Source: an uncultured Alphaproteobacteria bacterium
GTDB lineage: Bacteria; Electryoneota; RPQS01
Assembly (NCBI GenBank): GCA_964529255.1
Contig: CAZGVT010000003.1
Coordinates: 1-42,639 of the forward strand
Length of the DNA: 42,639 bases
Reading direction: 5' to 3'
Shown here: positions 3,593 through 40,505 of the stretch, piece after piece
Layout: each line of letters starts with the position of its first letter
Position numbering within the stretch: the stretch's first letter is position 1
Translations under genes and position numbers: made by a program
The notes under the pieces: generated by a model
What the model was told of the DNA's origin: nothing
Seen by the model: only the letters and a program-made list of their open reading frames with translations
The model's database searches: none

Positions 3593-3643
3593 GAATACTT
3601 AGACAATTTGTTTTCATCTGATTTCCCTAAGCAGGAGACATCC

Positions 3644-9600: not shown

Positions 9601-10984
9601 CGAGTATGAGTGGATCGATATCTCGCAAAACGGGACGGCGCTCACCCTCTCGGACGATTCGTACTCGGGCAATCTGAATATTGGATTCACGTTCAACTAC
9701 TACGGGCAGGATTACACTCAGCTGAAAGTCGGGTCCAACGGCTATTTGACGCTGGATGTCAACGATCCGTTCTGTCCGTACATCGAGACGGCGATTCCGA
9801 GCGCGGCCACGCCGAACAATGCGCTCTACTACTTCTGGGATGACATGAATCCGGGAGCCGGCGGTCAGGTTCTCTATCGTTCCGACGTGGCCGAAGGCCT
9901 GTTCATCGTCAGCTACCTCAACGTGCCGCACTTCGGTTCGGGTGAAACCTACACCTACCAGTGTATCCTGACCGAGAATGGCGGGATCATTTACAACTAT
10001 CAGACGGTCCCGATCAACACCAGCTGTACGATCGGTGTTGAGAATGCGACGGGCACCGAGGCCATCCAGTTGCTGTTCGACGGTTCCGGTCCGTTCCTCC
10101 CGACCGATGGGTCCGCAGTTTCCTTCTGGGGCGGACCGTCGGGTGAGTTGGCCGGAACCGTGATTCGTCAGAGCGACAACGAGCCGTTGCCGGACGTGGC
10201 GATCTACCTGGTTGGTCAACTCGATACCGCGTACACAGACGCTTCCGGCGATTATTCACTCGGCGCCGAACCGGGAACGTACACTGTCGGCTTTGTGCAC
10301 AGAGGATCATGTGACACGACGGTCGCGAATATCGAAATCGAAGACGACCAGACGACCACGCAGAACATGACCATGCGCAGCCCGTCGGTGACGTTTAGCG
10401 TGACGTCGATCTCCGAGGCGACGACCCCCGGCGTCAATGTGACAACTTCATTTACAATGGGCAATCCAACCGGATACTGCGACTTGGACTACCTGATCGC
10501 GGACAACGCCGCATGGCTGACGGCGACTCCGGCGCAAGGTTCGATTGTCGGCGGTCAGTCACGGGAAATCACGGTCCTCATGAATGTGCAGAATCTGAAT
10601 CCGGGCCAGGAATATCAGGCTACGATTCGGATCACGCACAATGCGCCGGGCGATACGTTCCTGATTCCGGTGACGCTGTTCATTTCGCTGGATGCGGATG
10701 ATCCAAGACTGGGTGTGCCCACGGAGTTTGCGTTCCACTCGAACTACCCGAATCCGTTCAACGCTACGACGGAATTCCGGTTCGACGTGCCGGCGGAAGC
10801 CCGCGTGGAAATAACCGTCTTGAATCTGCTCGGTCAGGAGGTTGCCACGGTGGTGAACGGCGTCTATCAAGCCGGTCGTCATCAGGTCTCGTTTGAAGGC
10901 AGCAATCTGGCTTCGGGTATGTACATCACGCGCATGAAGTCGGGATCGTACGCTGCAATGGGCAAGATGCTGCTGCTCAAGTAA
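3644..10984 (+). CDS. Giant (~2446 aa) multidomain secreted surface protein with T9SS-type C-terminal sorting domain
   Basis: ORF track gives 3608..10984 (TTG). I prefer ATG 3644, 6 nt after AGGAG, which yields signal peptide MSWQTKALVLIVLGTLMAAGISNA. It contains three NIDO-like modules (YEWVDIS / YDWIDIS / YEWIDIS ... SNG..SF ... WDDL), several Fn3-like units, three carboxypeptidase-regulatory-like units (SGTVTLDGGNGN.., SGHVTLDGGAGN.., AGTVIRQSDNEP..) and one MAM/LamG-like jelly roll. The C-terminus YPNPFNATTEFRFDVP..GMYITRMKSG..KMLLLK is a Por_Secre_tail-type sorting domain (nt ~10724-10981). Confidence 0.9.
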   Translation: MSWQTKALVLIVLGTLMAAGISNAMGYDKAAVIRLEEKFRSGQSLTAEELIEARRLAEAGAPIDAAAMAGGSPNPAQDRGRRNPLDEYSWVETDYEWVDISANGTNTGLTGDDQNLGPFALGFTVSYFGQDYTSLRVCSNGFASFTSTAATFTNQSIPNANEPNNSLFGLWDDLFLPNGGQVLYYADDANDRFIVSWLDVPHIDGNGNYTFQIIINASGSIVYNYMSLADVGSITVGIENQGGTEGLQVCFDGTGTLPTNESAFLISEQDGIPAQVTNLVGSVNGTTVTLSWLDPTQDTNGNPITLTNVQVWRGLPGQGQLIATVNPGVQTAVHTNAPTGEADYYVRAYANPFYGSARSVHVVVGDASYVEGFDQGDGLWVAGGDADGFEWGIPLDGPNALSEPNVWGVDLDDFYEDNQHAYVDLDIGLTVVSTDASFDCWIWYAAENSWDGCNFKVSIDGGNTWEIVTPTEGYPWASIQADNQWIGGEPAWTGTSNSWLQVHLPIGVYVGEAPIFRFDFGADPIISGYAGFYFDNVVIWGLQEPVTATVSGTVTLDGGNGNITQVQVRSNGIGNPITNPNAQGQYTLQNVLVGERTITALLNGYQTTSIIVTVPEGGINNVNLLVPRNPPPAPTLTSASVNGETGVVTLSWTLVADPLVDEYWVMRKMREDDDWVHVQTYTGNSGTDQLTLSGIWQYAIRAVDTGASQPIQSANSNHEEVLYGEIPPTGLHANGNFDDHIHLFWLPPGVSPAFQIFYDDSSAEAWYSVQGLAPSGPQDYFAVRFTPPSIDSVDYPLPVQTANIYFQMSDPPLAQVLVCPDGGGFPDLDNAWISFVDLAADSSPGWLHAPVDGAVLLEDDSDFWVAWQFAPGLIGPLTGSDATQVDGRSYWTLAPPQWNQWNFHDWMCRVWVGGAGGAAAQGRGFVLSTGTASGYRIDQVPTGGTITSMTLSKNGADEAEVAMAGPVRSAVTNVAGDFSDIIGNPGRSIPSNPYSGAPMLSYRADNRNTLDDLVNYRVYRDGVMIAQPVESEYDDFVNEGITYSYYVTGWYDSNEESGPTGTIDATAAMAPAAPANVNGVTLNSTQIRIEWINPTVNANGQPLIDFAGCRIFRDGVQIGEVGVGVQQYVDTPPLPNRTYLWEVRGFDEVPNVGPAGSFAGSVIDPWAEDSYDWIDISQDGINTGLTFDDQNNGPFNIGFPFTFYGNTYTSIRVCSNGWISFTDVSTTYFNQPIPSTFAPNNAIYGIWDDLFLPTGGQILYRADPGQFIVSWLDVPHIDGQGIFTFQIILDESGGIKINYQTVDHAMSWTTGVENLAGTQAIQLCHDGVGDWCATSESAVSFWGAPPVYANVSGHVTLDGGAGNLTQVAVSANGVSHPTTNPDAQGDYTLTDVVVGNRRLIASLTGYHSDTINVAVPEGGLIGQNFTLVRVDPPVPTGLTGSVNSGTGLVTLDWADSPDPLVDVYRIYRKLQTETQWVLVQTVSQSNATDQLTVDNVYNYAVSAVDNGVTTPVESDLSSSITILYGEIPPVQLTANGNFDDHIHLSWFEPGTPPESEMFYDNGANSPNIDGIGWWGGQPTFGWLVAKYSGNGEIAVTRLKTWITSFAMEGDPIQIGLFAADDSGLPTGDPLSVVDDVQTAPFDVFKEWDIDPPAIFPSGTFFVGMRQMTFNSICLGGDDTTPFINSTFYYAFTAGTWTSYEPGLPVIPMQRCFVIGDVGGVPMELELAPSPAGELSSVLSQRSPAKVDARGPVKVSLQKGAPVQMSWETLMNKYNADPRAAAMPNIKADFTAVNTQRMMERAEQATDVRVPYASTGGDDRDGRRGTLDDILYYIVYRNGVDIGHPVGLSYDDPRPENTPTDYYVTAYYDNNEESQPSNTVNDAVCNMAPGMPPSINLTPVGQSTMRVTWTAPTQNADGTPLVDLAGYRIYRDGAQVGTVGAGVTQYDDVPPVPNEFYLWSVRGIDEVPNVGPEASRVGAVQSPWEEIEYEWIDISQNGTALTLSDDSYSGNLNIGFTFNYYGQDYTQLKVGSNGYLTLDVNDPFCPYIETAIPSAATPNNALYYFWDDMNPGAGGQVLYRSDVAEGLFIVSYLNVPHFGSGETYTYQCILTENGGIIYNYQTVPINTSCTIGVENATGTEAIQLLFDGSGPFLPTDGSAVSFWGGPSGELAGTVIRQSDNEPLPDVAIYLVGQLDTAYTDASGDYSLGAEPGTYTVGFVHRGSCDTTVANIEIEDDQTTTQNMTMRSPSVTFSVTSISEATTPGVNVTTSFTMGNPTGYCDLDYLIADNAAWLTATPAQGSIVGGQSREITVLMNVQNLNPGQEYQATIRITHNAPGDTFLIPVTLFISLDADDPRLGVPTEFAFHSNYPNPFNATTEFRFDVPAEARVEITVLNLLGQEVATVVNGVYQAGRHQVSFEGSNLASGMYITRMKSGSYAAMGKMLLLK
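3926..10132 (+). repeat. Intragenic coding super-repeat: unit 1 3926-7153, unit 2 7154-9604, truncated unit 3 9605-10132
   Basis: The same domain order recurs. DNA-level similarity is visible, for example ttcatcgtgagctggct.gatgtgccgcacat at ~4221 and ~7443, and ctgtatgg.ga.attccgcc...aatttcgacga.ca.attca at ~5807 and ~8211. Unit 1 carries an extra Fn3 plus jelly-roll insert. Confidence 0.85.
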
Positions 10985-16338: not shown

Positions 16339-17532
16339 TTGTTCTGGAAGGAACTTCGTAACCTTTTGCAAACGATAGCTTTACCAGTTGTGACGGAACC
16401 ATCGCGTGAGGATCGCTCGGAATCGGGTATCGGGAAACGCAACAAGCGAGTTCGCGAGATCCGAATCGGGGCTGTGACCATCGGCGGCAATCACCCCGTG
16501 GCGGTTCAGTCCATGACGCTGACCGATACGCGGGATGCGCGCGCGACGTTGAACCAAATTCGGCAATTGGAAGAGGCAGGCTGCGAGATTATTCGCGTGG
16601 CCGTCCCGGACGACGAGGCTGCTGCTGCCTTGCCGCTGATCAAGCGGGAGATGAATGTGCCGCTCGTCGCCGACATTCACTTTCACTACAAGCTCGCGCT
16701 GAAGGCCATCGACGCCGGCGTGGACAAGATTCGCATCAACCCGGGAAATCTTGGCGGCGAGGGTCGCGCGAAGGTCGTGACCAAGGCGGCGCGGGAGGCG
16801 GGGATTGCGATGCGAGTGGGAGTGAACTCCGGCTCGCTTGAAAAGGACCTGATCGACAAGTATTGCGGCCCGACTCCGCAAGGCATGGTGGAATCCGCGC
16901 TTCGGCACATCGCATTCCTTGAAGATGAGGGTTTTTTTGATATTGTTTTGTCTCTGAAAGCCTCTAATGTGCCGCGCATGGTCGAGGCATATACGCTGAT
17001 GCGCGAACAAACCGACTATCCGCTGCATCTCGGAGTCACCGAGGCAGGGCCGCCGTCGACCGGGATTATCAAGTCCGCGATGGGAATCGGTTATTTGCTC
17101 GCCAACGGCATCGGCGAGACCCTGCGCGTCTCTTTGACCGCGGATCCCGTGGAAGAAGTTCGCGTGGGTTGGGAGATATTGAAATCCCTCGGACTCCGAA
17201 CACGCGGACCGAATCTCGTCGCTTGTCCGTCATGTGGAAGATGTGAAGTGGACTTGATTGATCTGACCACGCGAGTCGAGAAAGCGATTGCCGGACTGGA
17301 AAAGCCGCTGCACATCGCCGTTATGGGTTGCGTCGTGAACGGTCCCGGCGAAGCGCGTGAAGCGGATCTGGCTGTCGTCGGCGGTAAAAATAAAGGCATG
17401 ATCATGAAGGACGGCAAGATCATCGCCACGCTGAAGGAGGACGAGCTGATCCCGCGCCTGCTCGAAGAGGCGGACAAATACGATGTGAGCGGACGAGCGG
17501 ATGGCAGGCCGATGCTGGTGGCGGGGGCGTGA
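16339..17532 (+). CDS. ispG: 4-hydroxy-3-methylbut-2-en-1-yl diphosphate synthase (IspG/GcpE)
   Basis: RIGAVTIGGNHPVAVQSMT, PLVADIHFHY, RINPGNLG and C-terminal Fe-S ligand region CPSCGRC..GCVVNGPGE. The start is uncertain: TTG 16339 has no SD, and GTG 16390 is an alternative. Confidence 0.93.
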   Translation: MFWKELRNLLQTIALPVVTEPSREDRSESGIGKRNKRVREIRIGAVTIGGNHPVAVQSMTLTDTRDARATLNQIRQLEEAGCEIIRVAVPDDEAAAALPLIKREMNVPLVADIHFHYKLALKAIDAGVDKIRINPGNLGGEGRAKVVTKAAREAGIAMRVGVNSGSLEKDLIDKYCGPTPQGMVESALRHIAFLEDEGFFDIVLSLKASNVPRMVEAYTLMREQTDYPLHLGVTEAGPPSTGIIKSAMGIGYLLANGIGETLRVSLTADPVEEVRVGWEILKSLGLRTRGPNLVACPSCGRCEVDLIDLTTRVEKAIAGLEKPLHIAVMGCVVNGPGEAREADLAVVGGKNKGMIMKDGKIIATLKEDELIPRLLEEADKYDVSGRADGRPMLVAGA

Positions 17533-17554
17533 AATTGAACAATGAGGACGAGAG

Positions 17555-17833
17555 ATGCTGACTTCAAAGGCGGCCGCTGAGAGTGCCTTGAAGTACGTCA
17601 GCGATGTTTTCTCGCAAGATGTTGATGCGGGAAGAATCGTCAACGTCTTGATAGAGGAGATTGACCGTGACGAGAATGGCGACTGGCTCATTACGCTGGG
17701 ATGGGACCAGCGGCCCAACTATGCCTTTGGAACTGGTTTCCCGGTCTTGCCGGTACGACGGGTCTACAAACAATTCCGCATCTCTGCAACCAGTGGCGAA
17801 GTGGTCTGGATGAAAATTCGCAACGCCAATTAA
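17555..17833 (+). CDS. Hypothetical 92-aa protein; candidate non-canonical antitoxin of the downstream PIN protein
   Basis: ATG follows GAGGACGAGAG. The stop TAA lies 1 nt before the PIN gene ATG. I recognise no DNA-binding motif; the pattern is one helix followed by beta strands. Confidence 0.5.
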   Translation: MLTSKAAAESALKYVSDVFSQDVDAGRIVNVLIEEIDRDENGDWLITLGWDQRPNYAFGTGFPVLPVRRVYKQFRISATSGEVVWMKIRNAN

Positions 17834-17834
17834 G

Positions 17835-18308
17835 ATGAGGCCGGTGGCATCCGTCGTTCTGGATTCAAACCTATTCCTGTTGTACTGTGTCGGATGCTGG
17901 CGACCGGAACAGATTGCGATATTCAAGCGGACGTCAAGATACGAGGAGAAGGACTTTGATCTCTTGCAGAGATACCTCGTGCAGTTCCAAAGTTTGACTA
18001 TCACACCCAATACTGTCACTGAAGTCAGCAATCTATTGGGGCAACTCCATAATGATCATAGGGAAGAGATATTCGGCACACTCAAAGGTCTGATTTCGCA
18101 AAGTACCGAGCAATACGTCCCGAGCAGCGAGGCGTCCGATTCACCATGCTATCAGCGCTTTGGAATAACAGATGCAACACTCGAGCAACTGGCTCGCAGG
18201 GGACACGTTGTGCTTTCCGATGATTTCGCATTGACTGGCACACTTGTTAAGGCCGGGCTTCATGCGCTCAACTTCACGCAACTTCGCGTCCAGAACTGGG
18301 ATTCGTGA
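17835..18308 (+). CDS. PIN-domain nuclease (VapC-like toxin candidate)
   Basis: Four acidic PIN positions appear in canonical contexts: VVLDSNLF, NTVTEVSNLL, GITDATLEQLA and VVLSDDFAL. The protein is 157 aa and coupled to the upstream small ORF. Confidence 0.7.
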   Translation: MRPVASVVLDSNLFLLYCVGCWRPEQIAIFKRTSRYEEKDFDLLQRYLVQFQSLTITPNTVTEVSNLLGQLHNDHREEIFGTLKGLISQSTEQYVPSSEASDSPCYQRFGITDATLEQLARRGHVVLSDDFALTGTLVKAGLHALNFTQLRVQNWDS

Positions 18309-18320
18309 CCATCGTTTCTC

Positions 18321-18686
18321 ATGCCCTCCCCCAAAATCCCCATCACCGCCACCTTCGCTCGGATTCACGAGATCGAGCATCCGCACATCGTGGCGGAGGT
18401 GAACGATTTTCAGGTGAAGTTCACCAAGCTGAAGGGAGAGTTTGTCTGGCATCATCACGAGCAGGAGGATGAACTTTTTCTCGTGGTGAAGGGAAGCTTG
18501 AAGATGCAGTTTCGCGACGGGGACGTGATGGTGAACGAAGGCGAGATGATCGTTGTGCCGCACGGGGTCGAACACTGCCCCGTGGCGGAAGAAGAAACTC
18601 ATATTATCTTATTCGAGCGAAACTCGACGATTAACACCGGCAATGTCCGGAACGAGCGCACGCTCGAAACACTTGACCGAATCTGA
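18321..18686 (+). CDS. Cupin-domain protein
   Basis: Two-motif cupin signature: FVWHHHEQEDELFLVVKG and MIVVPHGVEHCP. Confidence 0.8.
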   Translation: MPSPKIPITATFARIHEIEHPHIVAEVNDFQVKFTKLKGEFVWHHHEQEDELFLVVKGSLKMQFRDGDVMVNEGEMIVVPHGVEHCPVAEEETHIILFERNSTINTGNVRNERTLETLDRI

Positions 18687-18712
18687 ATTTCGGCGGAAAG
18701 AGAATTCATAAG

Positions 18713-19267
18713 ATGCCCAGAGATTATCCAAAGCCCTCTCGTTCGACCGGCCCCAGACCCGGCGGATTCGCAAAGAAGAAACCGTGGGAACGCCGTGAAC
18801 GGCCCGAGGGCGGAGACCGACCGTATCGGAAATCGTTCGGCGAGAAGCGCACATTTGGCGCGCCGCGACGCGAGTTTGACGGACCGAAGCGCGATTTCGG
18901 CGACAAGAAGGACTTCCGATCCCCTCGCTATGACGAGGAACAGTTTACCGCCATTGGAAAAGTTGCCGATATCGTCGGCGTGGAACCACAGAGCAAATTC
19001 GATATGCTGAAAAAGCTCTGGGATTTCTTCCGCGACGAAAATATCATTGTTGCCGCAAAAGCGCGCCGCACCAGACCCGACGCGGGAGATTGGCGCGGCG
19101 AGTCGGACGGCGAGGAGCGACCGCGGGAACGCAGCTATTCAGACGACCGTCCGGCGAAGAAGACGTATCGCAAGCCAGCGGGTAATCATCCCACAGCATT
19201 GCGGGCAAAGAAGCTGGAAGGCGTAATCCGCAAAAAACTGGGGGATCGCAGAGTTCGCGACGAATAG
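18713..19267 (+). CDS. Highly basic, low-complexity protein with a central SWIB/MDM2-like segment
   Basis: Central IGKVADIVGVEPQSKFDMLKKLWDFFRDENII fits the SWIB pattern (LA.IvG....sR.e..KklW.YIk.n.L). It is flanked by Arg/Lys/Asp/Gly-rich tails with repeated (R/K)xFG / (R/K)DF motifs. Confidence 0.5.
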   Translation: MPRDYPKPSRSTGPRPGGFAKKKPWERRERPEGGDRPYRKSFGEKRTFGAPRREFDGPKRDFGDKKDFRSPRYDEEQFTAIGKVADIVGVEPQSKFDMLKKLWDFFRDENIIVAAKARRTRPDAGDWRGESDGEERPRERSYSDDRPAKKTYRKPAGNHPTALRAKKLEGVIRKKLGDRRVRDE

Positions 19268-19391
19268 TCAACGAACTACCTGCAATTCGCGTCGTCGCAT
19301 CAGTCTCGCCAAGAACTTCACGGACAAGTGCACGGATGTGTCTCGTCCGGCCTAGACAATCAACACCCGCTGATCGAAAACTGGAGAACGG

Positions 19392-19679
19392 ATGACCGTC
19401 AACATGACGACGATTGAAAACTACCGTCCTGAACCCTTCACGACGGACGACGAGAAAGTACAATTCGAGCTGCTCGAAAAACTCGTCACCTCGCTGCGGC
19501 CGATTCTTCTCGAAGAAGGCGGCGACGCACAGCCTGTTTCCGTGCGGGACGGAGTCGCGCGAGTCGCCTTCGGCGGCGGTTGCGAAGGGTGCGGCGGTGC
19601 GCTCGAGAACATGGAAGGCGGTCTCCGCCTAATGATCCTTGAAAGAGTCCCGGGTCTGAAGGAAGTTATCTTTGAATAA
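19392..19679 (+). CDS. NifU/Nfu-type Fe-S cluster scaffold/carrier domain protein
   Basis: LRPILLEEGGD..V..GVA.V.F.GGCEGCG (CxxC) is typical of the Nfu C-terminal domain. The protein is 95 aa. Confidence 0.85.
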   Translation: MTVNMTTIENYRPEPFTTDDEKVQFELLEKLVTSLRPILLEEGGDAQPVSVRDGVARVAFGGGCEGCGGALENMEGGLRLMILERVPGLKEVIFE

Positions 19680-19779
19680 AGGACCGGATTCGCAAGCGGA
19701 ATCGTCCCACCTCAAGGGGCGAGGGGCTGACCGCGTAGCTGCTGCAGCCGCAAAGGTCGGAGGAAACGGCAAGATCGTC

Positions 19780-20640
19780 ATGCCGGAGACGGAACAGCTC
19801 ACGGGTTTCACGCTGGTAGTCGAGAAGGTGTGGCTGTTCTTTTCCTCGGTGAAGTTGACGATTGTCCTGCTGATTCTACTCGCGGCGGCGATGTCCTACG
19901 GGACCTATATCGAGACCGTGATGTCCAACGGCGCGGCGCGGATCGTGATTTATCGCTCATGGTGGTTTGATTCGCTCATCGTCCTGCTGGCGATGAATCT
20001 GATCGGCTGCACCCTGCGCCGCGCGCCGTACAAACCGCATCAGGCATTCTGGCTCTCCACGCATGTTGCGCTGCTGATCATCATGGCGGGATCCATCGTC
20101 ACTCACCGCTTTGGTGTTCAGGGCCAGATGATGGTACCCGAAGGCGGTGTGGAGAGTGTGTATCACGAGGAGACGCTGGATCGCGAAAACCTGAACATGG
20201 TGCTCGGCAACCAGCGACGGCTGCCGTTCGATGTGCACTGCGATGACTTCGCGCAAATCCTCTATCCCGGCTCGGCGCAAACGCGCATCTTCCGTTCCAA
20301 AGTCTGGGTCGTGAAAGAAGACGGTGACACCGTGCGCTGGGATGTTACACTCAATCATCCGCTCGTTCACGAGGGTTTCAAAATCAGTCAGGCCTCGTGG
20401 GTGGATCTACCCGATGGCAGTCAAGCGACCATTCTCGGTGTGTCCTACGACCCGGGAATCCCCTTGATGTATGTTGGCGGCACGCTTCTCGTCCTGAGCA
20501 TGGCGGGCATTTTCTTTGTCAAGCCGTGGCTGAAGCGCAAATTCCCACCGAAGCCCGTGCAACGACACGTCAGGCTTCCGGAGGAGACGGAAATGACCCT
20601 GGAAACGAGCCCGGCAGCAATGCAGGCTTCCAAAACTTGA
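19780..20640 (+). CDS. ccsB: Cytochrome c biogenesis protein, ResB/CcsB family (compact form)
   Basis: FFSSVKLTIVLLILLAAAMSYGTYIE N-terminal TM, a TM with conserved His (WLSTHVALLIIMAG), a short periplasmic domain and a final TM. It sits directly upstream of ccsA. ATG 19780 is preferred; TTG 19672 would overlap the Nfu gene. Confidence 0.8.
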   Translation: MPETEQLTGFTLVVEKVWLFFSSVKLTIVLLILLAAAMSYGTYIETVMSNGAARIVIYRSWWFDSLIVLLAMNLIGCTLRRAPYKPHQAFWLSTHVALLIIMAGSIVTHRFGVQGQMMVPEGGVESVYHEETLDRENLNMVLGNQRRLPFDVHCDDFAQILYPGSAQTRIFRSKVWVVKEDGDTVRWDVTLNHPLVHEGFKISQASWVDLPDGSQATILGVSYDPGIPLMYVGGTLLVLSMAGIFFVKPWLKRKFPPKPVQRHVRLPEETEMTLETSPAAMQASKT

Positions 20641-20644
20641 AGGA

Positions 20645-22405
20645 ATGCGCATGAGGAGGCGTCTTTTGACCTCGCTGGTGTTGGCGCTGATGATGAGTAC
20701 GGCGATCATCCCTCCGTCCATCGCCTCGCCGGACAACGAATTTGACTGGGATCTTGCCGGACTCATCGCCGTACAACACGGCGGTCGAGTCAAGCCGCTT
20801 TCCACTTTTGCCCGCGATCTCGTCGCGCAGGTCCACGGTCACTCAAGTTACAAAAGCCAACACCCGCTGGAAACTTATTTCCATTGGATGTCCGACGGCG
20901 AGAAATGGTCAGAGGAGAAGCTGTTCTACCTTACCAAAGGACCGCTCCGTTCAGAAATGGAGCTGCCCAATGATGCGGGAAACTACTTCCGGATGTCCGA
21001 GTTGCAGGTAAACTCCGGCCTGATGCGGCTTGCGCGCGAAGGAGCGGCGGCCGATGAGAAGGGAGACAAGCCAAGTTTCACGCAGACAAAGGCCAATGAA
21101 CTGCTGGGCCGAATGCAGGCACTCTCGACGGTGTTCAGTCATCAATCCCCGAGGATGGTGCCACAACCCGGCGGCGATCCGCAGGCGGAGTGGATGACTT
21201 TGCCGGCGTTACTTTCCAGGTACGATGAAGGCACTCTGATTCCGGAAGACGGCCAAAAGGTTGACGATCCCTATCGCGCAATGGCCATTGCCTTTTCGGG
21301 TATGTACATGTCCGTGCGCGACAACCGGCCGGACATGTTTAACACATCGCTGGATGTGTTCCTTGAGAATCAAGCACTGATCCTCGCCGAGCAACCCACG
21401 GTGCTTTCAAAACTGCATTGGGAAGAAGTCTACCTCTGGTTGCAGCCGTACACGGTGGCGAAGTGGTTGCTCGTCGTCGCGCTCTTTGCACTGGGTTTGA
21501 GTTTGTGGCGGCGTTTGACCGTAGTGGAGTATGCCGGACTCTCCGCGCTGGTGGGCGCTCTCGTGTTCTATACCGGCGGCCTTGCGTTACGCGCATACAT
21601 CAGCGGACGCGCCCCGTGGTCGAATATGTACGAGTCGCTGCTGGCGATCGGCTGGTCGCTGCTCATCGTGGCCGTAGTCTACGAGTTGATTCGCCGCGAC
21701 CGCGTGATGGCGATGGTCGGATCGGCACTGGGGATTTTCATTATCGGAATTGCGCAATATGCCAGCCTGGATCGTGGCATCAATCCGCTGGTCCCCGCAT
21801 TGCAGAGCTACTGGCTGAACTATCACGTCATCATCACCCTCGCCAGTTACGCCTGCTTCGCAATTGCGATGGGCGTCGGCCACACCGTTCTGGTATCCGG
21901 CATTCGCAGCAAAGGTGCGATGACTCCTTCGCTGGCCGGGTTGGCAAAGGCGAATCTGAAAATTGTTCAGGTGGGAAGCCTGCTGATTATCACCGGCATC
22001 CTGCTCGGCGCCGTTTGGGCGAATGTGAGCTGGGGAAGATTCTGGGGTTGGGATCCCAAAGAGACTTGGGCACTCATTACGTGGTTCGTTTACATCATAC
22101 TCCTGCACGGCAGAAGCGCAGGCTGGCTCGGCTGGAGGGGATTCGCGGCCTGCTCCGTGGGCGCATTTCCGATCGTGATCATGACCTATTACGGAGTTAA
22201 TTTTTATCTGTCCGGATTGCACAGCTATGGAGCCGGGTCGGCGCCGGGTGTGCCGTGGCAGATGTTCGCCTACGTCGCCGCAGAAGGCGGATTCCTGTTC
22301 TGGGCTTTGTCACGGCTGAAAGGCACGCTCCCGACTCGACCGAAAAGTGGACAGGGAGCCGCTCAGAGCGTACCGTCACGAGTTCAAACTTCGGAGGTTG
22401 CATAA
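20645..22405 (+). CDS. ccsA: Cytochrome c-type biogenesis protein CcsA/ResC with a long N-terminal periplasmic extension
   Basis: The heme-handling WWD motif WGRFWGWDPKETWALITW is present, with multiple TM helices. Signal peptide MRMRRRLLTSLVLALMMSTAIIPPSIASP is followed by ~250 aa of soluble sequence. Confidence 0.9.
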   Translation: MRMRRRLLTSLVLALMMSTAIIPPSIASPDNEFDWDLAGLIAVQHGGRVKPLSTFARDLVAQVHGHSSYKSQHPLETYFHWMSDGEKWSEEKLFYLTKGPLRSEMELPNDAGNYFRMSELQVNSGLMRLAREGAAADEKGDKPSFTQTKANELLGRMQALSTVFSHQSPRMVPQPGGDPQAEWMTLPALLSRYDEGTLIPEDGQKVDDPYRAMAIAFSGMYMSVRDNRPDMFNTSLDVFLENQALILAEQPTVLSKLHWEEVYLWLQPYTVAKWLLVVALFALGLSLWRRLTVVEYAGLSALVGALVFYTGGLALRAYISGRAPWSNMYESLLAIGWSLLIVAVVYELIRRDRVMAMVGSALGIFIIGIAQYASLDRGINPLVPALQSYWLNYHVIITLASYACFAIAMGVGHTVLVSGIRSKGAMTPSLAGLAKANLKIVQVGSLLIITGILLGAVWANVSWGRFWGWDPKETWALITWFVYIILLHGRSAGWLGWRGFAACSVGAFPIVIMTYYGVNFYLSGLHSYGAGSAPGVPWQMFAYVAAEGGFLFWALSRLKGTLPTRPKSGQGAAQSVPSRVQTSEVA

Positions 22406-24397
22406 TTGCAAAAACCCCGGGTGGAGACCAGCCTGTCGCCCGTGATTACGCGGGTGGAAAGTCCGGCTGATCTGAAGAAACTAACCCTGGACGAGCTCGA
22501 GCAACTCTGTGTCGAATTGCGAGCGGAGCTCTGGGAGACGATTAATACGGTCGGCGGACACCTTGCCGCTTCGATGGGAGTTGTTGAACTCACCGTCGCC
22601 TTGCATCACACTTATGATGCGCCGCGAGACAAGATTGTTTGGGATGTAGGCCATCAAGGCTACATCCACAAGATGCTCACCGGGCGCCGCAGGGAGCTGC
22701 GCAGCATTCGCCAACTGAAAGGACTGTCAGGATTCCTGCGACGCGACGAAAGTGAATTCGATTGCTTTGGCGCCGGACACGCGTCCACTGCAATCAGCGC
22801 TGCCTACGGCATGGCGGCGGCGCGGGACTTGAAAGGCGAAGACTACAAGGTTGTGGCCGTCGTCGGCGACGGCGGGCTCACCGGCGGACTCGCGTTTGAA
22901 GCGCTGAATAATGCCGGACCGTCGGGACGAGATTTCACCGTCATCTTGAATGACAACGGCATGTCCATCTCGCGAAACGTCGGCGCCGTTCCAAAATTTC
23001 TCGCGCGCATGGAATCCAATCCAAAGCTCTCGCGAGTCAAAGACGAAGTCTGGCGACTGCTTGGCGAATCACCCGTGGGCGCGCGCACTCTGCAACGTCT
23101 TGCCGGCCGCATGGAAGCCTCCCTCAAGACCTTTATATCGCCCGGCATGTTGTTCGAAGATCTCGGCTTTCAGTATTTCGGACCGTTCGACGGTCACAAC
23201 TTGCGCGAAATCGTCGAGATTCTGCAAAACGTGAAGGCCGCGCACAAGCATCCGGTCATCATTCACGTCATCACGCAAAAGGGGAAAGGCCAGGAGTGCG
23301 CCGAAGCCGATCCGATCACGTGGCACGCGGTGAAGGGCATTCCGGCGAAAGTCGAACCCAAACTCGAGTCCGTCCCGCTGCCGGCGACGATGGCCTATAT
23401 GGACATTTTCGGCGAGCAGATGATTCGCGAGACCGCCCGAGATCGAAAGATCATCGCGATCACCGCCGCAATGAAAGAAGGCACCGGACTCGTTAAGTAC
23501 GCGACGACTCACCCGAACGAGTTTTTCGACGTAGGCATCGCCGAGGGACACGCGGTGACCTTTGCGGCGGGCATGGCGACCGAAGGGTTGCGCCCGGTGG
23601 TGGCGATCTACTCCACATTTTTGCAGCGGGCCTTCGACCACATCGTCCATGACTGCGCCTTGCAGAAATTACCGGTGGTGTTTTGTCTGGATCGCGGAGG
23701 ACTTGTCGGGGAAGACGGCCCAACGCATCACGGCTGCCTTGATCTTGCCTATCTTTCGTGCGTGCAGGGAATGATTGTCGCCGCGCCGCGTTCCGGAAGC
23801 GAATTCCGAAATCTGATGCGCACGGCCCTCATGCAAGACTTGGCGCCGTTTTCGATTCGCTATCCCCGCGACAAAGCACCGGATGTGATCGATTGGGACA
23901 CCGAACCCGAACCGATTCCCATCGGAAGCTGGGAAGTGATCCGCGAAGGCAGAAAAGTTCTCGTCCTGGCCATCGGCACCATGGTGGAAGCTTCGAGGCG
24001 AGTCATTGCCAGCGAAGAGCTGAACGTGACGCTGGTGAATTGCCGCTTCCTGAAACCGTTCGACGAGAAGTTGCTTGCCGAACTGCTGACAAGACACGAA
24101 AGTGTGATCACCATTGAAGAGGGTGCGGGCTGGGGCGGATTCGGTGCGTTGACTTCGAAGTATATGCTCGCCCATGGCCATCATCACAATTTTGCCTCGC
24201 TTCATCTTCCGGATGAGTTCATCGAGCACGGGAAGCGCGATCAGTTGCTTGCCATCGCCGGACTTTCGGATGCCCACATTTCCGAGGCGATCATTGGGAT
24301 GCTGAAAGGCAATCGCGCGCAATCCGAGCCTACTTTTTCGGTTGGTCAATCAATTCGGCGACTCGGTGACGATCATCAGGAGAATGCGGATTCATGA
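22406..24397 (+). CDS. dxs: 1-deoxy-D-xylulose-5-phosphate synthase
   Basis: GGHLAASMGVVELTVALH, WDVGHQGY, ThDP motif VVGDGGLTGGLAFEALNNAG and IAEGHAVTFAAGMA. TTG 22406 lies 8 nt after GGAGG. The stop overlaps the ispH ATG. Confidence 0.95.
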   Translation: MQKPRVETSLSPVITRVESPADLKKLTLDELEQLCVELRAELWETINTVGGHLAASMGVVELTVALHHTYDAPRDKIVWDVGHQGYIHKMLTGRRRELRSIRQLKGLSGFLRRDESEFDCFGAGHASTAISAAYGMAAARDLKGEDYKVVAVVGDGGLTGGLAFEALNNAGPSGRDFTVILNDNGMSISRNVGAVPKFLARMESNPKLSRVKDEVWRLLGESPVGARTLQRLAGRMEASLKTFISPGMLFEDLGFQYFGPFDGHNLREIVEILQNVKAAHKHPVIIHVITQKGKGQECAEADPITWHAVKGIPAKVEPKLESVPLPATMAYMDIFGEQMIRETARDRKIIAITAAMKEGTGLVKYATTHPNEFFDVGIAEGHAVTFAAGMATEGLRPVVAIYSTFLQRAFDHIVHDCALQKLPVVFCLDRGGLVGEDGPTHHGCLDLAYLSCVQGMIVAAPRSGSEFRNLMRTALMQDLAPFSIRYPRDKAPDVIDWDTEPEPIPIGSWEVIREGRKVLVLAIGTMVEASRRVIASEELNVTLVNCRFLKPFDEKLLAELLTRHESVITIEEGAGWGGFGALTSKYMLAHGHHHNFASLHLPDEFIEHGKRDQLLAIAGLSDAHISEAIIGMLKGNRAQSEPTFSVGQSIRRLGDDHQENADS

Positions 24398-25269
24398 AAG
24401 TGCTGATTGATCCGCGCGCGGGATTTTGCGGCGGTGTGCGGAGAGTCGTCAAGATGGCGGAAAAGGAACTTTCCAGCACTGGAGAGCAGCTCATCAGTCT
24501 CGGCGACATTATTCACAACGAAGTGGAGATCGCCCGGCTCAAGGAGCTGGGGCTAAGCAGCGCTAATCACGAGATTCTCGGCAACGGCGCCGCGCCTTCC
24601 AAGTTGCTGATTCGCGCGCACGGTGAGCCGCCGGAAACCTATGAAAAAGCCAAGGCGCTGAGCGTTGAAATCGTTGACGGCACCTGCCCGGTCGTGACGC
24701 GCTCGCAGAACATTGCCCGCACGCATTACTTGAACGGCGATCAAGTGGTCATCATCGGCAAACCTTATCACCCGGAAACGATTGGCATCGTCGGCCACTG
24801 CGACAATCAGGCGCTTGTGGTTTACGACCGCGAAGACGTGCAACGGCTGGATGCGGCACGCAAGACCTTTGTGCTCTGTCAGACAACCATTTCACGAGAA
24901 TGGTTCGAGGAGCGCATCGCATGGATCAAGGAATTCTGTTCCGAGGTCGAAGTGCAGGTGGAGAACACGCTCTGCCGATTCGTCGTGGGACGGGACAACG
25001 ATCTCATGAAATTCGCCCGCGAAGTCGACGTGGTCGTCATGGTCGGTGGCACGAAGAGTTCAAATACCAAAGTTCTGTTTGGGGTTTGTAAGGAAGTGAA
25101 TCCGCGCTCGCACAGCGTCGTCACTGCCGAAGAAATCGACTTCGAGTGGTTTCGTTCCGATGATGTCGTCGGTGTGACCGGGTCGGCCTCGACTCCGCAC
25201 TGGCTGCTGGAGGACGTGCGCAATTACATTGCCGAGAAATCGAGAGCTGAAGTGATTGAGAAGGCGTAG
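24394..25269 (+). CDS. ispH: 4-hydroxy-3-methylbut-2-enyl diphosphate reductase (IspH/LytB)
   Basis: MKVLIDPRAGFCGGVRRV, DGTCPVV and ENTLC supply the three cluster Cys. The length of 291 aa fits the family. Confidence 0.95.
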   Translation: MKVLIDPRAGFCGGVRRVVKMAEKELSSTGEQLISLGDIIHNEVEIARLKELGLSSANHEILGNGAAPSKLLIRAHGEPPETYEKAKALSVEIVDGTCPVVTRSQNIARTHYLNGDQVVIIGKPYHPETIGIVGHCDNQALVVYDREDVQRLDAARKTFVLCQTTISREWFEERIAWIKEFCSEVEVQVENTLCRFVVGRDNDLMKFAREVDVVVMVGGTKSSNTKVLFGVCKEVNPRSHSVVTAEEIDFEWFRSDDVVGVTGSASTPHWLLEDVRNYIAEKSRAEVIEKA

Positions 25270-37362: not shown

Positions 37363-37671
37363 TCACTCCTCCTCAGGAGAACCCTCGTCTCCCGTTTGGC
37401 CCATCAGGGAGTCGAAAATGTCCAGCGCCCGCGCATGGTACTCGGCGGGGACCTGAATTCGCCACTGTTTGCCCGGACTGTCCGTGCCCATGACCACTCC
37501 CAGACCTCCCGCCGCAAGGTCGGTCTTCACGAGATTGGGAATCCCTTCATCGTCGAGCACCTCTGTGACCATCGCCACCCACAATCCGCCCTCCAGCGGA
37601 GGCAGGCTTACCCATTCGGTGTAACCGCGTGCCTCGCCGCCCGCGGGCTCAGGAATCGTTTGCTTGGTCAT
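37363..37671 (-). CDS. Small acidic protein, DUF2007-like (putative signal-transducing fold)
   Basis: W..l......a.l....L.deGIP...k... followed by ..IQVPAEYHARALDIF fits the DUF2007 pattern. ATG 37671 overlaps the yhaM 3' end by 23 nt. Confidence 0.4.
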   Translation of the reverse strand: MTKQTIPEPAGGEARGYTEWVSLPPLEGGLWVAMVTEVLDDEGIPNLVKTDLAAGGLGVVMGTDSPGKQWRIQVPAEYHARALDIFDSLMGQTGDEGSPEEE

Positions 37672-38650
37672 GATCGTCAATGGGTTGGAAGTAGAAAAAC
37701 CGTTCCATCAGCTTTACATATTCGGAGAATGGCTGTCCGGCAGGAGTCTGGCTGCGAACCCGCCGAATCGCATCAATGCGGCTGTCAATTTCGTCACAAT
37801 AATGCAGTACTATCGCTTCAAGAGTCATCGGCTTCACCGGCGAGCCCATCGTTCCGTCCCCTTGGTGCGAGAGGATCAGATGCAGCAACTGGCGGCGAAT
37901 CTCGGCCGGGAAATCCGGCACAGCAGCCATTTGCTTCTCGACGAACAGCGTTCCCTGCGTGATGTGGCCAAGCAGCCGCCCCTCAACAGTATAGTCAATT
38001 GCAATTTCCGCCCCAAGCTCGAAAACTTTTCCTATATCGTGCAGAAGCGCGCCGGCGACGAGCAAGTCGCGGTGCAAGTCCGGATACAGCGGAGTGATCG
38101 CATCCGCCAGCCGCGCCAGCGACAACGTGTGTTCCGCCAGTCCGCCAATGGTAGCATGATGCCAAAGCTTGCCTCCCGAGGCCTGCAAGAACCGCGCAAG
38201 AAACTCCTGATCTCCGAAGATATTCTCAAGCAACGCGCGCAGCGGCGGGCTCTCCACCGTACCAACCATGCTCACCAGCCGGTGATGCAGCTCCTGTTCG
38301 CTGAGAAAAGAATGCGGAAGAAATGCGAGCCGGTCCGGAGCCTCCTCTGCGGTCGCCACGCGAACCCTGGAAATAATCAGGCCGGGAATGTCGCGATAGC
38401 GATCGGTGACGGCGTCGAGCTTGACGACGTCTCCCGCCTTCGCCTGCGACGCAAATTCTTCAAAGCCCTCCCACATTTTCGCATCGAGTGTTCCCGAGGG
38501 ATCCTGCAACTTCAGCTCAAGATAATTTCCACCCGACCGCTTGGGTTTCGATTCGATCTTTGTGAGCAAATAGAAGCCGATGACTCTATCACCGGCCGGT
38601 AGTTCACGAACACGCGCAAGAGGAATGGTGGTTTCAGGTGTACGAGACAT
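37649..38650 (-). CDS. yhaM: YhaM-like 3'-5' exoribonuclease (N-terminal OB fold + HD domain)
   Basis: OB-fold region VIGFYLLTKIESKPKRSGGNYLELKLQDPSGTLDAKMWE. HD domain HHATIGGLAEHTLSL..GALLHDIGKV..LSHQG. Confidence 0.8.
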   Translation of the reverse strand: MSRTPETTIPLARVRELPAGDRVIGFYLLTKIESKPKRSGGNYLELKLQDPSGTLDAKMWEGFEEFASQAKAGDVVKLDAVTDRYRDIPGLIISRVRVATAEEAPDRLAFLPHSFLSEQELHHRLVSMVGTVESPPLRALLENIFGDQEFLARFLQASGGKLWHHATIGGLAEHTLSLARLADAITPLYPDLHRDLLVAGALLHDIGKVFELGAEIAIDYTVEGRLLGHITQGTLFVEKQMAAVPDFPAEIRRQLLHLILSHQGDGTMGSPVKPMTLEAIVLHYCDEIDSRIDAIRRVRSQTPAGQPFSEYVKLMERFFYFQPIDDHDQANDS

Positions 38651-38657
38651 GAGTGAA

Positions 38658-39254
38658 TCAACTCACGTCGCCAACTTCCGAGAGAAGTCGCTTGATTTCA
38701 GAACAAAACCTCCTGAACGACGGGCCGTTTTGACATGCTGCGTCGATGTCAAGCCGGGCTGCAAATCGAGGCGCGTCATCTACGCCGGAATAGTTGCGCA
38801 AGTCGTCCATGTTGCGTTCCAGCTCCCGTTTCGCGTCTCGGATCGTCTCGATATTGGGCGGAGAAACCGCATTGGGCCGAATTCCGCAGACATCCCGCAA
38901 CGATTCTTTCGCGCTAAGAAACCATGCCTCGAATTCTCTTACCGCCGCGACGACAGAACATGGGTAGTGCCAGTTCGATCGTAACTCTTGCTGTAACGTT
39001 GTCTCAAGCGCAATGGGGTCGTCATCGTCCGAATCAAGTAGGAGCAAAAGCGCACAAGGCTGACGTGAGCTCTGGTATGCAAGCCTAATTCGTCTCTTTA
39101 GCTCGTCAGGTTTGACAATGCGGTTTCGGTACACTCGGTGAGTGGTGATTTGTAACTCGCCAACGTCCTCCACGCCGACGATTCGCCGTATCAGCCCCGG
39201 CAGTGCATTTACTTCCGTCTTGCCTTCCACAAGTACAATCAGCTGCTTTCTCAT
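38658..39254 (-). CDS. DUF4276 family protein (Toprim-like; candidate nuclease partner of the upstream ATPase)
   Basis: LIVLVEGKTE supplies the Toprim-type Glu and LLLLDSDDDD a DxD acidic cluster. EFEAWFLS is recalled as a DUF4276 hallmark. The start overlaps the ATPase stop (ATGA). Confidence 0.7.
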   Translation of the reverse strand: MRKQLIVLVEGKTEVNALPGLIRRIVGVEDVGELQITTHRVYRNRIVKPDELKRRIRLAYQSSRQPCALLLLLDSDDDDPIALETTLQQELRSNWHYPCSVVAAVREFEAWFLSAKESLRDVCGIRPNAVSPPNIETIRDAKRELERNMDDLRNYSGVDDAPRFAARLDIDAACQNGPSFRRFCSEIKRLLSEVGDVS

Positions 39255-40501
39255 GCAGTTTGTTCGGTTCCGGGGAAGAGCGGTCCAAAGAGATCAAAGT
39301 CCGAAATGGCGTCGGCAGCGGCATCTATTGCCAAGGTGAGCTCGTTAGAGCGCAGCAACTCCCCTGCATAAAAAAGACGGTCCCGAATTACATCGCGAAT
39401 AGCCGGAGTGACCGGGCCGACAAGCGTACGGCCTTGATTGTCCATCTCAACGACCCGCAAGAATGAATCTTCAACTTCTTTCAAGTCAATCAAGTCAGCG
39501 CTCTGAGTTGCAATGATGACCTGACGATCAAGAGATATTCCCTTCAGGACTTGGAATATGACCTCCGCCGCTCCGGGATGAATCGCTAATTCCGGATCCT
39601 CAATAGCGATCACAGGGTGATACCCGACTTGATACGCCGCAAGCAAAATCGCCAGAGACCGCAAGGTGCCCTCAGACATGTCGGCTGCCTGAAAGTTAAT
39701 GAGATGACCATTCCCATGCGACTTTTGGAACAACACCGTTTCCGTGGATGAACCGAGATCAAACTCCCCAGAAACCTCAGATCTCACCGACTCCACACGA
39801 CTCACACCAGAGACGATGTGCGACAAGAGGCTTCCAATCCGCTTATAGTATTCGCTACTCTCACTCTTTTCGCTGGCGATTTTACGAAGCACCGCGGCGG
39901 CGTTGCTCCCGTCGGATCGCAGATACTCACCGGAGTCAGGTACTTGCCACTTCCGAATCTGATCAGTCTTGAACGAGTAATAGCGCACATTTCTCAGAAT
40001 CTGAAGCACTGCGCCAAGATTGTTCCACCCCGAAAATGCGGTAACGAGACTAAGTTGGCCAGTGGATGCCAGTGGTTTCGTGCCGGTTGAGTTCTCTATG
40101 AACTCATTCCCGCATCGATAGTAGCCAAAGGCAGCAGTCTCCTGAGTACGTCGAACATAGCAGCGCTCCCGCCATGCCACTTGTGTGGCACTAAACGGAT
40201 CTGATTCGATCTCAAGACTGAAATCGGCCTGTCCGAAAATCGGTGAATCGCAGAGAATTCGGAATCCAAGCGGCCATCGGGCTCCGGCAACCCGGCAGTT
40301 TATCGCATCAATACCCCCAAAATCGCGCATAACATCAGCCGCATTTCTGTTGGCTATTTCGGAAACCATGCGCAGCGCATTCAGAAGATTGCTCTTCCCG
40401 GCTCCATTAGGTCCAACAAGAACAGTGAAAGGCTCAAGCATAACTCGAGCCCTTTCAATGCTTCTGAAATTCTGAATCCAGAATTCTCTGATTCTCGTCA
40501 T
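39251..40501 (-). CDS. ABC-type / AAA_21-like ATPase (SMC/RecF-like head, no fused effector domain)
   Basis: Walker A GPNGAGKS, signature-like MSEGTLRSLAIL, Walker B/D-loop VIAIEDPELAIHP and IIATQS at the H-loop position. The protein is 416 aa. Confidence 0.85.
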   Translation of the reverse strand: MTRIREFWIQNFRSIERARVMLEPFTVLVGPNGAGKSNLLNALRMVSEIANRNAADVMRDFGGIDAINCRVAGARWPLGFRILCDSPIFGQADFSLEIESDPFSATQVAWRERCYVRRTQETAAFGYYRCGNEFIENSTGTKPLASTGQLSLVTAFSGWNNLGAVLQILRNVRYYSFKTDQIRKWQVPDSGEYLRSDGSNAAAVLRKIASEKSESSEYYKRIGSLLSHIVSGVSRVESVRSEVSGEFDLGSSTETVLFQKSHGNGHLINFQAADMSEGTLRSLAILLAAYQVGYHPVIAIEDPELAIHPGAAEVIFQVLKGISLDRQVIIATQSADLIDLKEVEDSFLRVVEMDNQGRTLVGPVTPAIRDVIRDRLFYAGELLRSNELTLAIDAAADAISDFDLFGPLFPGTEQTA

Positions 40502-40505
40502 CGAG

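Follow-up and report, generated by a model that had tools for sequence, protein, structure and literature searches.

Locus and gene content

Contig CAZGVT010000003.1 (NCBI GenBank assembly GCA_964529255.1), from an uncultured Alphaproteobacteria bacterium that the GTDB places in Electryoneota (lineage RPQS01), was analyzed over positions 1 to 42,639; this whole stretch of 42,639 nucleotides (nt) is referred to here as the window. Near one end of it, two adjacent genes encode an ABC-type ATPase and a small protein of the DUF4276 family. An earlier reading of this DNA, made from the letters and their translations without database searches (the sequence-only reading), had proposed the two genes as a split OLD-like module of candidate immunity. 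We describe the pair as a stand-alone member of the candidate defence system HEC-01 and weigh the view that it works as an ATPase-gated nuclease. The features of the locus are as follows.

39251..40501, minus strand: HEC-01A-type ABC ATPase gene (open reading frame (ORF) of 416 amino acids (aa), without an effector domain)
38658..39254, minus strand: HEC-01B-type DUF4276 gene, encoding a predicted Toprim-fold nuclease (198-aa ORF)
39251..39254, minus strand: ATGA overlap between the stop of the ATPase gene and the start of the DUF4276 gene, read from the sequence; predicted translational coupling
40502..40505, minus strand: upstream insertion junction, a 4-nt spacer after the stop of a FadL-type porin gene (from the sequence and from relatives with an empty site)
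38651..38657, minus strand: downstream insertion junction, a 7-nt spacer ahead of the start of an HD/OB gene (from the sequence and from relatives with an empty site)

Both ORFs and their ATGA overlap were found where the sequence-only reading had put them; the strand, which it had left unstated, is the minus strand. All the motifs it had quoted are present in the translations: GPNGAGKS, MSEGTLRSL, VIAIEDPELAIHP and IIATQS in the ATPase, and LIVLVEGKTE, LLLLDSDDDD and EFEAWFLS in its partner. In the public annotation, translation of the ATPase begins at Met21, which gives a protein of 396 aa and drops the first conserved strand (40442-40501, minus strand). Alignments with homologues and with the PADLOC and Pfam models begin at residues 3-4 of the longer protein, and we therefore prefer the 416-aa form that starts at 40501.

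The pair had been judged by eye to be richer in AT than its neighbours, and this impression proved significant. The GC content of the pair is 52.1%, against 56.3 ± 1.4% for segments of the same size over the 42.6-kb window. It is the lowest-GC segment of the window: 0.37% of the segments were equally low, and every one of them overlapped the pair. The GC content at third codon positions (GC3) is 0.53-0.57 in the pair, compared with 0.63-0.72 in all other genes tested. Promoter and terminator scans gave counts that were not above those in shuffled controls, with no promoter signal of the pair's own. Neither tRNA genes nor Rfam families were detected in the window, which argues against a tRNA-linked integration site and against an associated non-coding RNA.

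Both proteins match the HEC-01 models over their full length

The two proteins were compared with the PADLOC models. The ATPase matched HEC-01A (PDLC04178) at an E-value of 1.2e-85, its residues 3-395 aligning with model positions 8-387 of 399, and the DUF4276 protein matched HEC-01B (PDLC04196) at 2.4e-52, residues 4-192 aligning with positions 3-193 of 197. The two genes also have the arrangement of HEC-01, being adjacent on the minus strand with a 4-nt overlap. HEC-01, the "Hma-embedded candidate 01" of PADLOC-DB v2, was discovered embedded in Hma; its authors describe an ABC ATPase accompanied by a TOPRIM protein and, from the structure predicted for the latter, a metal-binding site in common with Burkholderia pseudomallei OLD (Payne et al., bioRxiv 10.1101/2024.01.29.577857). 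Because both proteins match these models over their full length, the locus belongs to a system that is already catalogued, and with 40-47% identity to its nearest database relatives it is almost certainly a new and rather divergent member of HEC-01. The PADLOC comparison, which had been suggested as a check on the sequence-only reading, thus gave the pair its name.

Weaker matches to PADLOC and NCBIfam models were obtained for MADS Mad3 and Mad4, AriA, Old, GajA, NsnB and AbiLi, none of them at membership level. Judged by similarity, these matches place the pair in the OLD-like superfamily of ABC ATPases with partner nucleases.

The ATPase has a complete ABC head with an altered Walker B motif

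The claim that the 416-aa protein is a complete ABC/AAA_21-type head without an effector domain was borne out. Pfam searches returned AAA_21 (3.2e-25) and AAA_15 (1.2e-15) together with SMC_N, and the N-terminus of the protein also matched the models of RecF, RecN, SMC and Rad50. An AlphaFold2 (AF2) model, built with 34 homologues, reached a mean predicted local distance difference test score (pLDDT) of 90.6 and a predicted template modelling score (pTM) of 0.91. Foldseek searches with this model retrieved PtuA, the SMC head, Thermus (Ts) OLD and Rad50 at E-values of about 1e-12 to 1e-10, PtuA being the best match (1.3e-12). When the profile of the ATPase family was searched against the PDB, Ts OLD (6P74) ranked first (9.7e-16), followed by PtuA, GajA, SMC and AriA.

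Walker A, Q-loop, signature motif, Walker B and H-loop were all located on this ABC head fold. Residue conservation was scored in an alignment of 182 homologues, and the principal motifs are listed below.

40391..40414, minus strand: Walker A (P-loop) GPNGAGKS, residues 30-37; G30, G35 and K36 invariant in the 182 homologues
39653..39679, minus strand: ABC signature MSEGTLRSL, residues 275-283; S276, G278 and T279 invariant in the 182 homologues
39590..39613, minus strand: Walker B VIAIEDPE, residues 297-304; family consensus IEEPE
39596-39598, minus strand: D302, in place of the family Glu in Walker B; E in 181/182 homologues, D in the window protein only
39500..39511, minus strand: H-loop ATQS, residues 331-334, with Gln333 in place of His (39503-39505); H in 171/182, Q in 10/182 and Y in 1/182 homologues

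The H-loop of the family reads T-T-H-S. The glutamine that the sequence-only reading had noticed at this position is therefore a genuine minority variant, which includes a Streptomyces clade; its combination with D302 is unique among the 182 homologues. The other invariant residues of the ATPase are kept, including K36, S276/G278/T279, E301 and P303/E304. The hhhhDE motif of ABC ATPases suggests, by analogy, that position 302 is the catalytic base. On these residues, the window ATPase has probably kept ATP binding and dimerization, and its hydrolysis may be slow.

The DUF4276 protein carries a putative Toprim metal site

The association of the motif EFEAWFLS with DUF4276 was confirmed by Pfam: the 198-aa protein matched DUF4276 (PF14103) at 3.4e-19, scoring 70.3 bits where the cut-off is 30.2 and spanning positions 1-191 of the 192 in the model. 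A profile search retrieved 4,438 DUF4276 clusters at 50% identity (941 of them at E-values up to 1e-30), and the top 150 clusters all consist of stand-alone proteins of about 200 aa. The AF2 model of the window protein (pLDDT 89, pTM 0.87) shows alternating strands and helices. Conservation of its residues was scored over 145 diverse family members.

39225..39227, minus strand: Glu10 (in VEG) at the end of strand 1 (E3-10), putative catalytic or metal-binding Glu of the Toprim fold; conserved in at least 90% of the 145 members
39018..39035, minus strand: DSDDDD, residues 74-79, putative DxD metal site at the end of strand 3 (E68-75); D74 invariant and D76 conserved in at least 90% of the 145 members
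38922..38936, minus strand: EFEAW, residues 107-111, second acidic cluster after strand 4 and hallmark of the family; E107, E109 and W111 conserved in at least 90%

In addition, G11 is invariant in the 145 members. Glu10 and D74-x-D76 occupy the canonical Toprim positions at the ends of strands 1 and 3, in keeping with the Glu plus DxD metal site that had been recognized by eye. The structural comparison was less decisive. In the PDB, the only whole-length match with a template modelling (TM) score of 0.50/0.50 was the Toprim region of OLD (6NK8), with an E-value of 0.024 and a probability of 0.96, and nothing was found there at E ≤ 1e-3. In the BFVD viral library, the single significant match was a phage RloB-like protein (E 9e-4, TM 0.54/0.51). 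Since Foldseek gave no PDB match at E ≤ 1e-3, the Toprim assignment rests on the TM scores, the motif positions and the viral RloB match.

Hidden Markov model (HMM) comparisons linked DUF4276 weakly to RloB, OLD-like_TOPRIM, GajA and Old. When the 145 members were scanned singly, RloB was touched by 16 of them, DUF3226 by 17 and OLD-like_TOPRIM by 3, all weakly. Among the families that the sequence-only reading had named for such searches, DUF4276, AAA_21 and AAA_15 were matched in the window pair; OLD-like_TOPRIM stayed below its cut-off and DUF4435 gave no match. The expected structural likeness to an OLD Toprim domain likewise appeared as the best whole-length match, at a weak E-value. The Menshen analysis has published DUF4276 as a Toprim domain and a Mad4 homologue, and lists DUF4276 and RloB as Toprim effectors (PMC12065111). 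Taking these results together, we accept the assignment of the DUF4276 protein to the predicted Toprim fold, the fold test itself being suggestive, in agreement with two published analyses.

The two genes form a conserved and autonomous module

Relatives of the DUF4276 protein were collected by scanning the pattern [RK]EFE[AC]WFL over 185,579 species genomes, which yielded 265 relatives, and the best 80 of the 265 loci were examined. An ATPase homologue lies directly upstream on the same strand in 75 of the 77 loci that have room upstream; homologues are thus conserved as a pair, and pairing is practically obligate. The same 4-nt overlap was found in 32 of the 65 loci with near-full-length ATPases, and the gap is at most 20 nt in 59 of the 65. 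Because of these two counts, translational coupling, as predicted from gene spacing, is a family trait. In seven loci (L070, L075, L009, L056, L069, L084 and L086) the upstream ATPase was undetected or fragmentary; these may be pseudogenized or rearranged copies.

The ORFs within 6 kb of the pairs were clustered, and no third gene recurs: each neighbour family is confined to at most 7 of the 78 loci, and what sharing there is reflects lineage-specific synteny. As no third gene recurs over the 78 loci, the pair is maintained on its own in most genomes, and it is an autonomous two-gene module.

The pair is an accessory insertion into a housekeeping gene array

The pair sits between the FadL-type porin gene and the HD/OB gene in a co-directional housekeeping array. 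The gene content of the window is of the housekeeping kind: GcpE, DXS and LytB of the methylerythritol phosphate (MEP) pathway, cytochrome c assembly, lipoyl synthase and a TolB-like protein, as well as enolase, DivIC, the HD/OB protein, the FadL-type porin and ornithine/aspartate carbamoyltransferase. In the closest available relatives, three metagenome contigs (L088, L089 and L155), the same site is empty: no ATPase or DUF4276 gene lies between the porin and HD/OB genes, and the order porin, HD/OB gene, 105-aa ORF and enolase is kept. The HD/OB proteins of these relatives are 61-70% identical to that of the window and the porins 53-57%, and the distance from porin to HD/OB gene is roughly 90-215 bp. 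The empty site in three relatives, which the anomalous GC and GC3 of the pair fit, indicates that the pair is a horizontally acquired insertion of 1.85 kb into the array, and its status is that of an accessory element. At the insertion borders only short terminal direct or inverted repeats of chance level were found, and no integrase or tRNA gene marks the insertion.

Over the family as a whole, the distribution is patchy across phyla and includes one archaeon. The chromosome of Streptomyces sp. NBC_00989 carries two pairs (L025 and L028), each about 0.1 Mb from opposite ends and with identical match statistics; they probably lie within the terminal inverted repeats of a linear chromosome. The pair is also present on three Streptomyces megaplasmids, where one copy adjoins an IS701 transposase and a recombinase. 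The sole relative in the phage collection is L168 (MT835995.1, an unverified human-gut "Bacteriophage sp." scaffold), in which a DUF4276 relative with 34% identity lies at 22322-22864, close to the end of an unannotated 23-kb scaffold.

Three further features of the window were recorded. The 105-aa ORF (37363-37680, minus strand), which has the HD/OB gene on one side and enolase on the other, shares 32 nt with the former and matches no Pfam family; it is kept at the same position in L087, L089 and L090 with 60-67% identity and is probably a real small gene. A 2,458-aa ORF (3608-10984, plus strand) encodes a predicted large secreted or surface protein. Its domains include MAM-like, NIDO and CarboxypepD_reg, and a type IX secretion sorting domain at its C-terminus hints at an organism of the FCB group. 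At 16339-25269 (plus strand), the MEP-pathway genes GcpE/IspG, DXS and LytB/IspH cluster with ResB-like and CcsA-like genes for the assembly of cytochrome c, an ordinary housekeeping arrangement.

Genomic context of homologous pairs and published tests of defence

The immediate neighbours (two genes on each side) of 35 diverse loci within L008-L081 were scanned, giving 129 neighbours that were assessed without a genome-wide background. The commonest Pfam families among them are metabolic, namely metallophosphoesterase, ferrochelatase, histidinol dehydrogenase and sulfatase, and the neighbourhoods of P0003 and P0014 are metabolic as well. PADLOC matches at E-values up to 1e-10 were obtained for HmaA (2 neighbours, with matches reaching 3e-166), type I methyltransferase (2), mad2 (4), mad3 (4) and AbiEii (1). 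At one locus of the 35, the pair adjoins a second HEC-01 pair of another subtype (HEC-01A PDLC04177, 5.9e-135; HEC-01B PDLC04201, 3.6e-71). The anticipated enrichment of homologous pairs in defence neighbourhoods was thus not seen for this subfamily, as far as a scan with mostly metabolic neighbours and no background-corrected statistic can tell. Because this enrichment was not seen, the case for immunity is weakened, though not disproved.

The published experiments conflict. In a metagenome study of cold seeps, one HEC-01 cluster picked at random was reported to defend E. coli B against one or more of the phages T4, T5 and T7, and HEC-01 ranked in the top 12 system types by abundance in the cold-seep genomes. 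In MADS, deletion of mad3 or mad4 lowers defence, and deletion of mad5 succeeds only when mad2 or mad3 is deleted as well, which implicates the ATPase (mad3) in self-toxicity. The authors of the PARIS study included DUF4276 partners in their tree of AAA15/21 defence ATPases (PMC11464382). The sequence-only reading had held that the DUF4276 version is without an experimentally defined function. That is only partly true: HEC-01 homologues have been tested with phages, and mad3 and mad4 are required in MADS.

Proposed mechanism and alternative explanations

We consider the window pair to be probably a stand-alone, horizontally acquired and translationally coupled HEC-01 cassette that acts as an ATPase-gated Toprim nuclease in defence. 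The module anticipated by the sequence-only reading, a split OLD-like ATPase with a Toprim-type DUF4276 partner, finds support in the ABC fold, the Toprim residues and the conserved pairing; it had already been catalogued as HEC-01. A mechanism was drawn by analogy with PARIS, OLD/Gabija, AbiL and the Mad3/Mad4 proteins of MADS. The OLD/PtuA/SMC-type ATPase would form ATP-dependent head dimers or higher oligomers through ATP-sandwich heads, and would keep the DUF4276 nuclease bound and inactive. A cue of phage or plasmid origin, be it a protein or some abnormal nucleic-acid structure, would shift the ATPase to another nucleotide state or conformation, and the altered ATPase would license the Toprim site (Glu10, Asp74/Asp76 and Glu107/Glu109). 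The licensed nuclease would then cut invading DNA, or host or viral RNA, and replication of the invader would be blocked, possibly at the cell's cost. We infer complex formation, nuclease activity, trigger, substrate and anti-phage outcome from these analogies, and regard defence by such a gated nuclease as somewhat more likely than not.

Several observations weigh against this reading. A representative of HEC-01 expressed in E. coli gave no protection against any phage tried (Payne et al., bioRxiv 10.1101/2024.01.29.577857), and the cold-seep report gives no fold reduction for HEC-01. In the literature we found no mechanistic study of HEC-01 and no biochemical data for any HEC-01 protein. Most homologous pairs, that of the window included, lie among metabolic or housekeeping genes and not in defence islands. 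Relatives of the subfamily are rare on plasmids and phages, with 3 in 72,556 plasmid records and 1 in 50,697 phage records. The Foldseek backing for the Toprim fold is modest (E 0.024 in the PDB and a single viral match at 9e-4), and the DUF4276 profile found no match among all PDB sequences at E-values up to 10, that is, no solved relative. Finally, the unique E302D change together with H333Q could mean that the ATPase is impaired.

This last point leads to the possibility that the window copy is an inactive or decaying remnant, its ATPase unable to hydrolyse ATP and the module idle in this genome. Its Asp302, the only one among the 182 homologues, and the Gln of its H-loop would fit such a state, as would a promoter signal no stronger than in shuffled controls. 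However, both ORFs are intact and of full length against the family models, the other invariant ATPase residues and the whole acidic set of the Toprim site are kept, and E-to-D and H-to-Q are conservative changes, Gln occurring in the H-loop of 10 homologues, the Streptomyces clade among them. Read-through transcription is also likely, because the genes are tightly packed in a co-directional array. We regard decay as improbable. Much the same weight can be given to a selfish, addiction-like module of the toxin-antitoxin type, in which a DUF4276 toxin is restrained by the ATPase, loss is harmful and there is no net antiviral benefit. A compact, coupled two-gene unit found as single insertions in non-defence contexts, with one negative test of phage defence, would be expected of such a module; AriA was named "antitoxin" by its PDB depositors, and the Pfam entry for AAA_21 speaks of a putative AbiEii toxin domain. 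Yet the gene order, a large ATPase followed by a small nuclease, and the domain set fit the sensor-effector defence systems PARIS, AbiL and Septu and not the classical toxin-antitoxin systems, and some pairs lie within Hma or type I restriction-modification (RM) loci. Addiction, which we think unlikely, and abortive infection are in any case compatible with each other.

It is less probable still that the pair is an orphaned sub-module of a methylation-associated system of the MADS or Hma type, in need of an absent methyltransferase and other partners. The discovery of HEC-01 within Hma, the HmaA, type I methyltransferase or mad2/mad3-like neighbours at a few homologous loci, the weak MADS3 and MADS4 matches and the need for mad3 and mad4 in MADS defence all point that way. 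Those matches are, however, far below the NCBIfam cut-offs (98 bits against 420 for MADS3, and 22.8 against 160 for MADS4); moreover, neither a methyltransferase nor a helicase nor any further mad or hma gene is present in the 42.6-kb window, and the absence of a recurring third gene over 78 loci speaks against dependence on partners. A housekeeping role in DNA repair or recombination, like that of RecF-RecR or of SbcCD/Rad50-type machines, could be suspected from the RecF, RecN, SMC and Rad50 matches of the ATPase N-terminus and from the position of the pair in a co-directional housekeeping array with junctions of 4 and 7 nt. Such a role is very unlikely, because the site is empty in the closest relatives and the distribution is patchy, with about 265 pattern-matched relatives in 185,579 species genomes; the anomalous GC and GC3 of the pair and flanks that differ in every lineage also speak against it.

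Within the reading as a gated-nuclease cassette, a more specific proposal may be put forward tentatively. HEC-01-type pairs could represent an autonomous and distinct form of OLD-like immunity, which travels as single cassettes of 1.8 kb into ordinary operons and not into defence islands. The nuclease would be sequestered and released as in PARIS, with its trigger and its nucleic-acid target (possibly RNA) unlike those known from PARIS, Gabija and OLD; the window copy would then be a naturally slow-hydrolysing variant. If this were true, the window ATPase would reveal how the nucleotide state gates the nuclease. Its naturally altered catalytic residues could help mechanistic work to tell ATP binding apart from hydrolysis. 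The locus opens no new category, and the function of the pair keeps its candidate status. HEC-01 is a widespread candidate defence family with conflicting experimental evidence, and the window offers a clean, isolated cassette insertion with a defined empty site, showing that the pair is autonomous and mostly found outside defence islands.

Comparison with known systems

HEC-01 itself is the closest system: an ABC ATPase (HEC-01A) is followed by a Toprim/DUF4276 protein (HEC-01B), as in the window. The window copy differs in lying outside Hma or any other defence system, between FadL-type porin and HD/OB genes, and in the unique E302D change in the Walker B motif of its ATPase. In MADS, Mad3 is a related AAA_21-type ATPase and Mad4 a DUF4276 homologue, and both are genetically required (Maestri et al.). 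MADS, however, is a methylation-based system of eight genes; mad1, mad2 and mad5-8, of which MAD6-8 are mandatory, were not found in the window, and the bit scores given above place the pair outside MADS.

PARIS is likewise a split two-gene system in which an ABC ATPase is paired with a Toprim nuclease; the ATPase serves as scaffold and sensor and sets the nuclease free (PMC11464382). The AriA model matches the C-terminal half of the window ATPase at 1e-25, far below the HEC-01A score. The partner in PARIS is AriB, a DUF4435 protein, whereas that of the window is a DUF4276 protein, which gave no DUF4435 or AriB match at E-values up to 1; the pair is therefore not a member of PARIS, and the PARIS trigger Ocr and target tRNA-Lys cannot be assumed for it. 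AbiL (AbiLi with AbiLii/RloB) and the RloA/RloB pairs of type I RM loci also combine an ATPase with a small Toprim-like protein in two genes, and the best viral fold match of the DUF4276 model is an RloB-like protein. AbiLi matches the window ATPase at only 3.6e-15, and Pfam gave no RloB match to the window DUF4276 protein, which sets the pair apart from AbiL.

OLD nucleases (classes 1 and 2) and GajA share with the window pair the ABC ATPase clade (Ts OLD, 6P74) and the type of the predicted Toprim site. In contrast to the two genes of the window, both domains are fused there in a polypeptide of 500-600 aa, and Gabija adds the helicase GajB. OLD-like_TOPRIM (PF20469) scored 15.5 bits against a cut-off of 23.2, and the Old and GajA models match the N-terminal segment of the ATPase only, or the DUF4276 protein at about 0.03, so that the pair falls outside OLD/GajA. 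Menshen combines the ABC ATPase NsnB with NsnC variants that carry a DUF4276 Toprim effector domain (PMC12065111), and NsnB matches the window ATPase at 4.6e-20. Menshen has three genes, NsnA among them, and its DUF4276 is the C-terminal module of NsnC, whereas the window protein stands alone and the flanking genes encode a porin and an HD/OB protein, unlike the three-gene organization of Menshen. In the Septu and retron-associated pair PtuA-PtuB, two genes again encode an ATPase and a nuclease, but the effector PtuB is an HNH nuclease with no Toprim domain; PtuA is the closest solved structure to the window ATPase.

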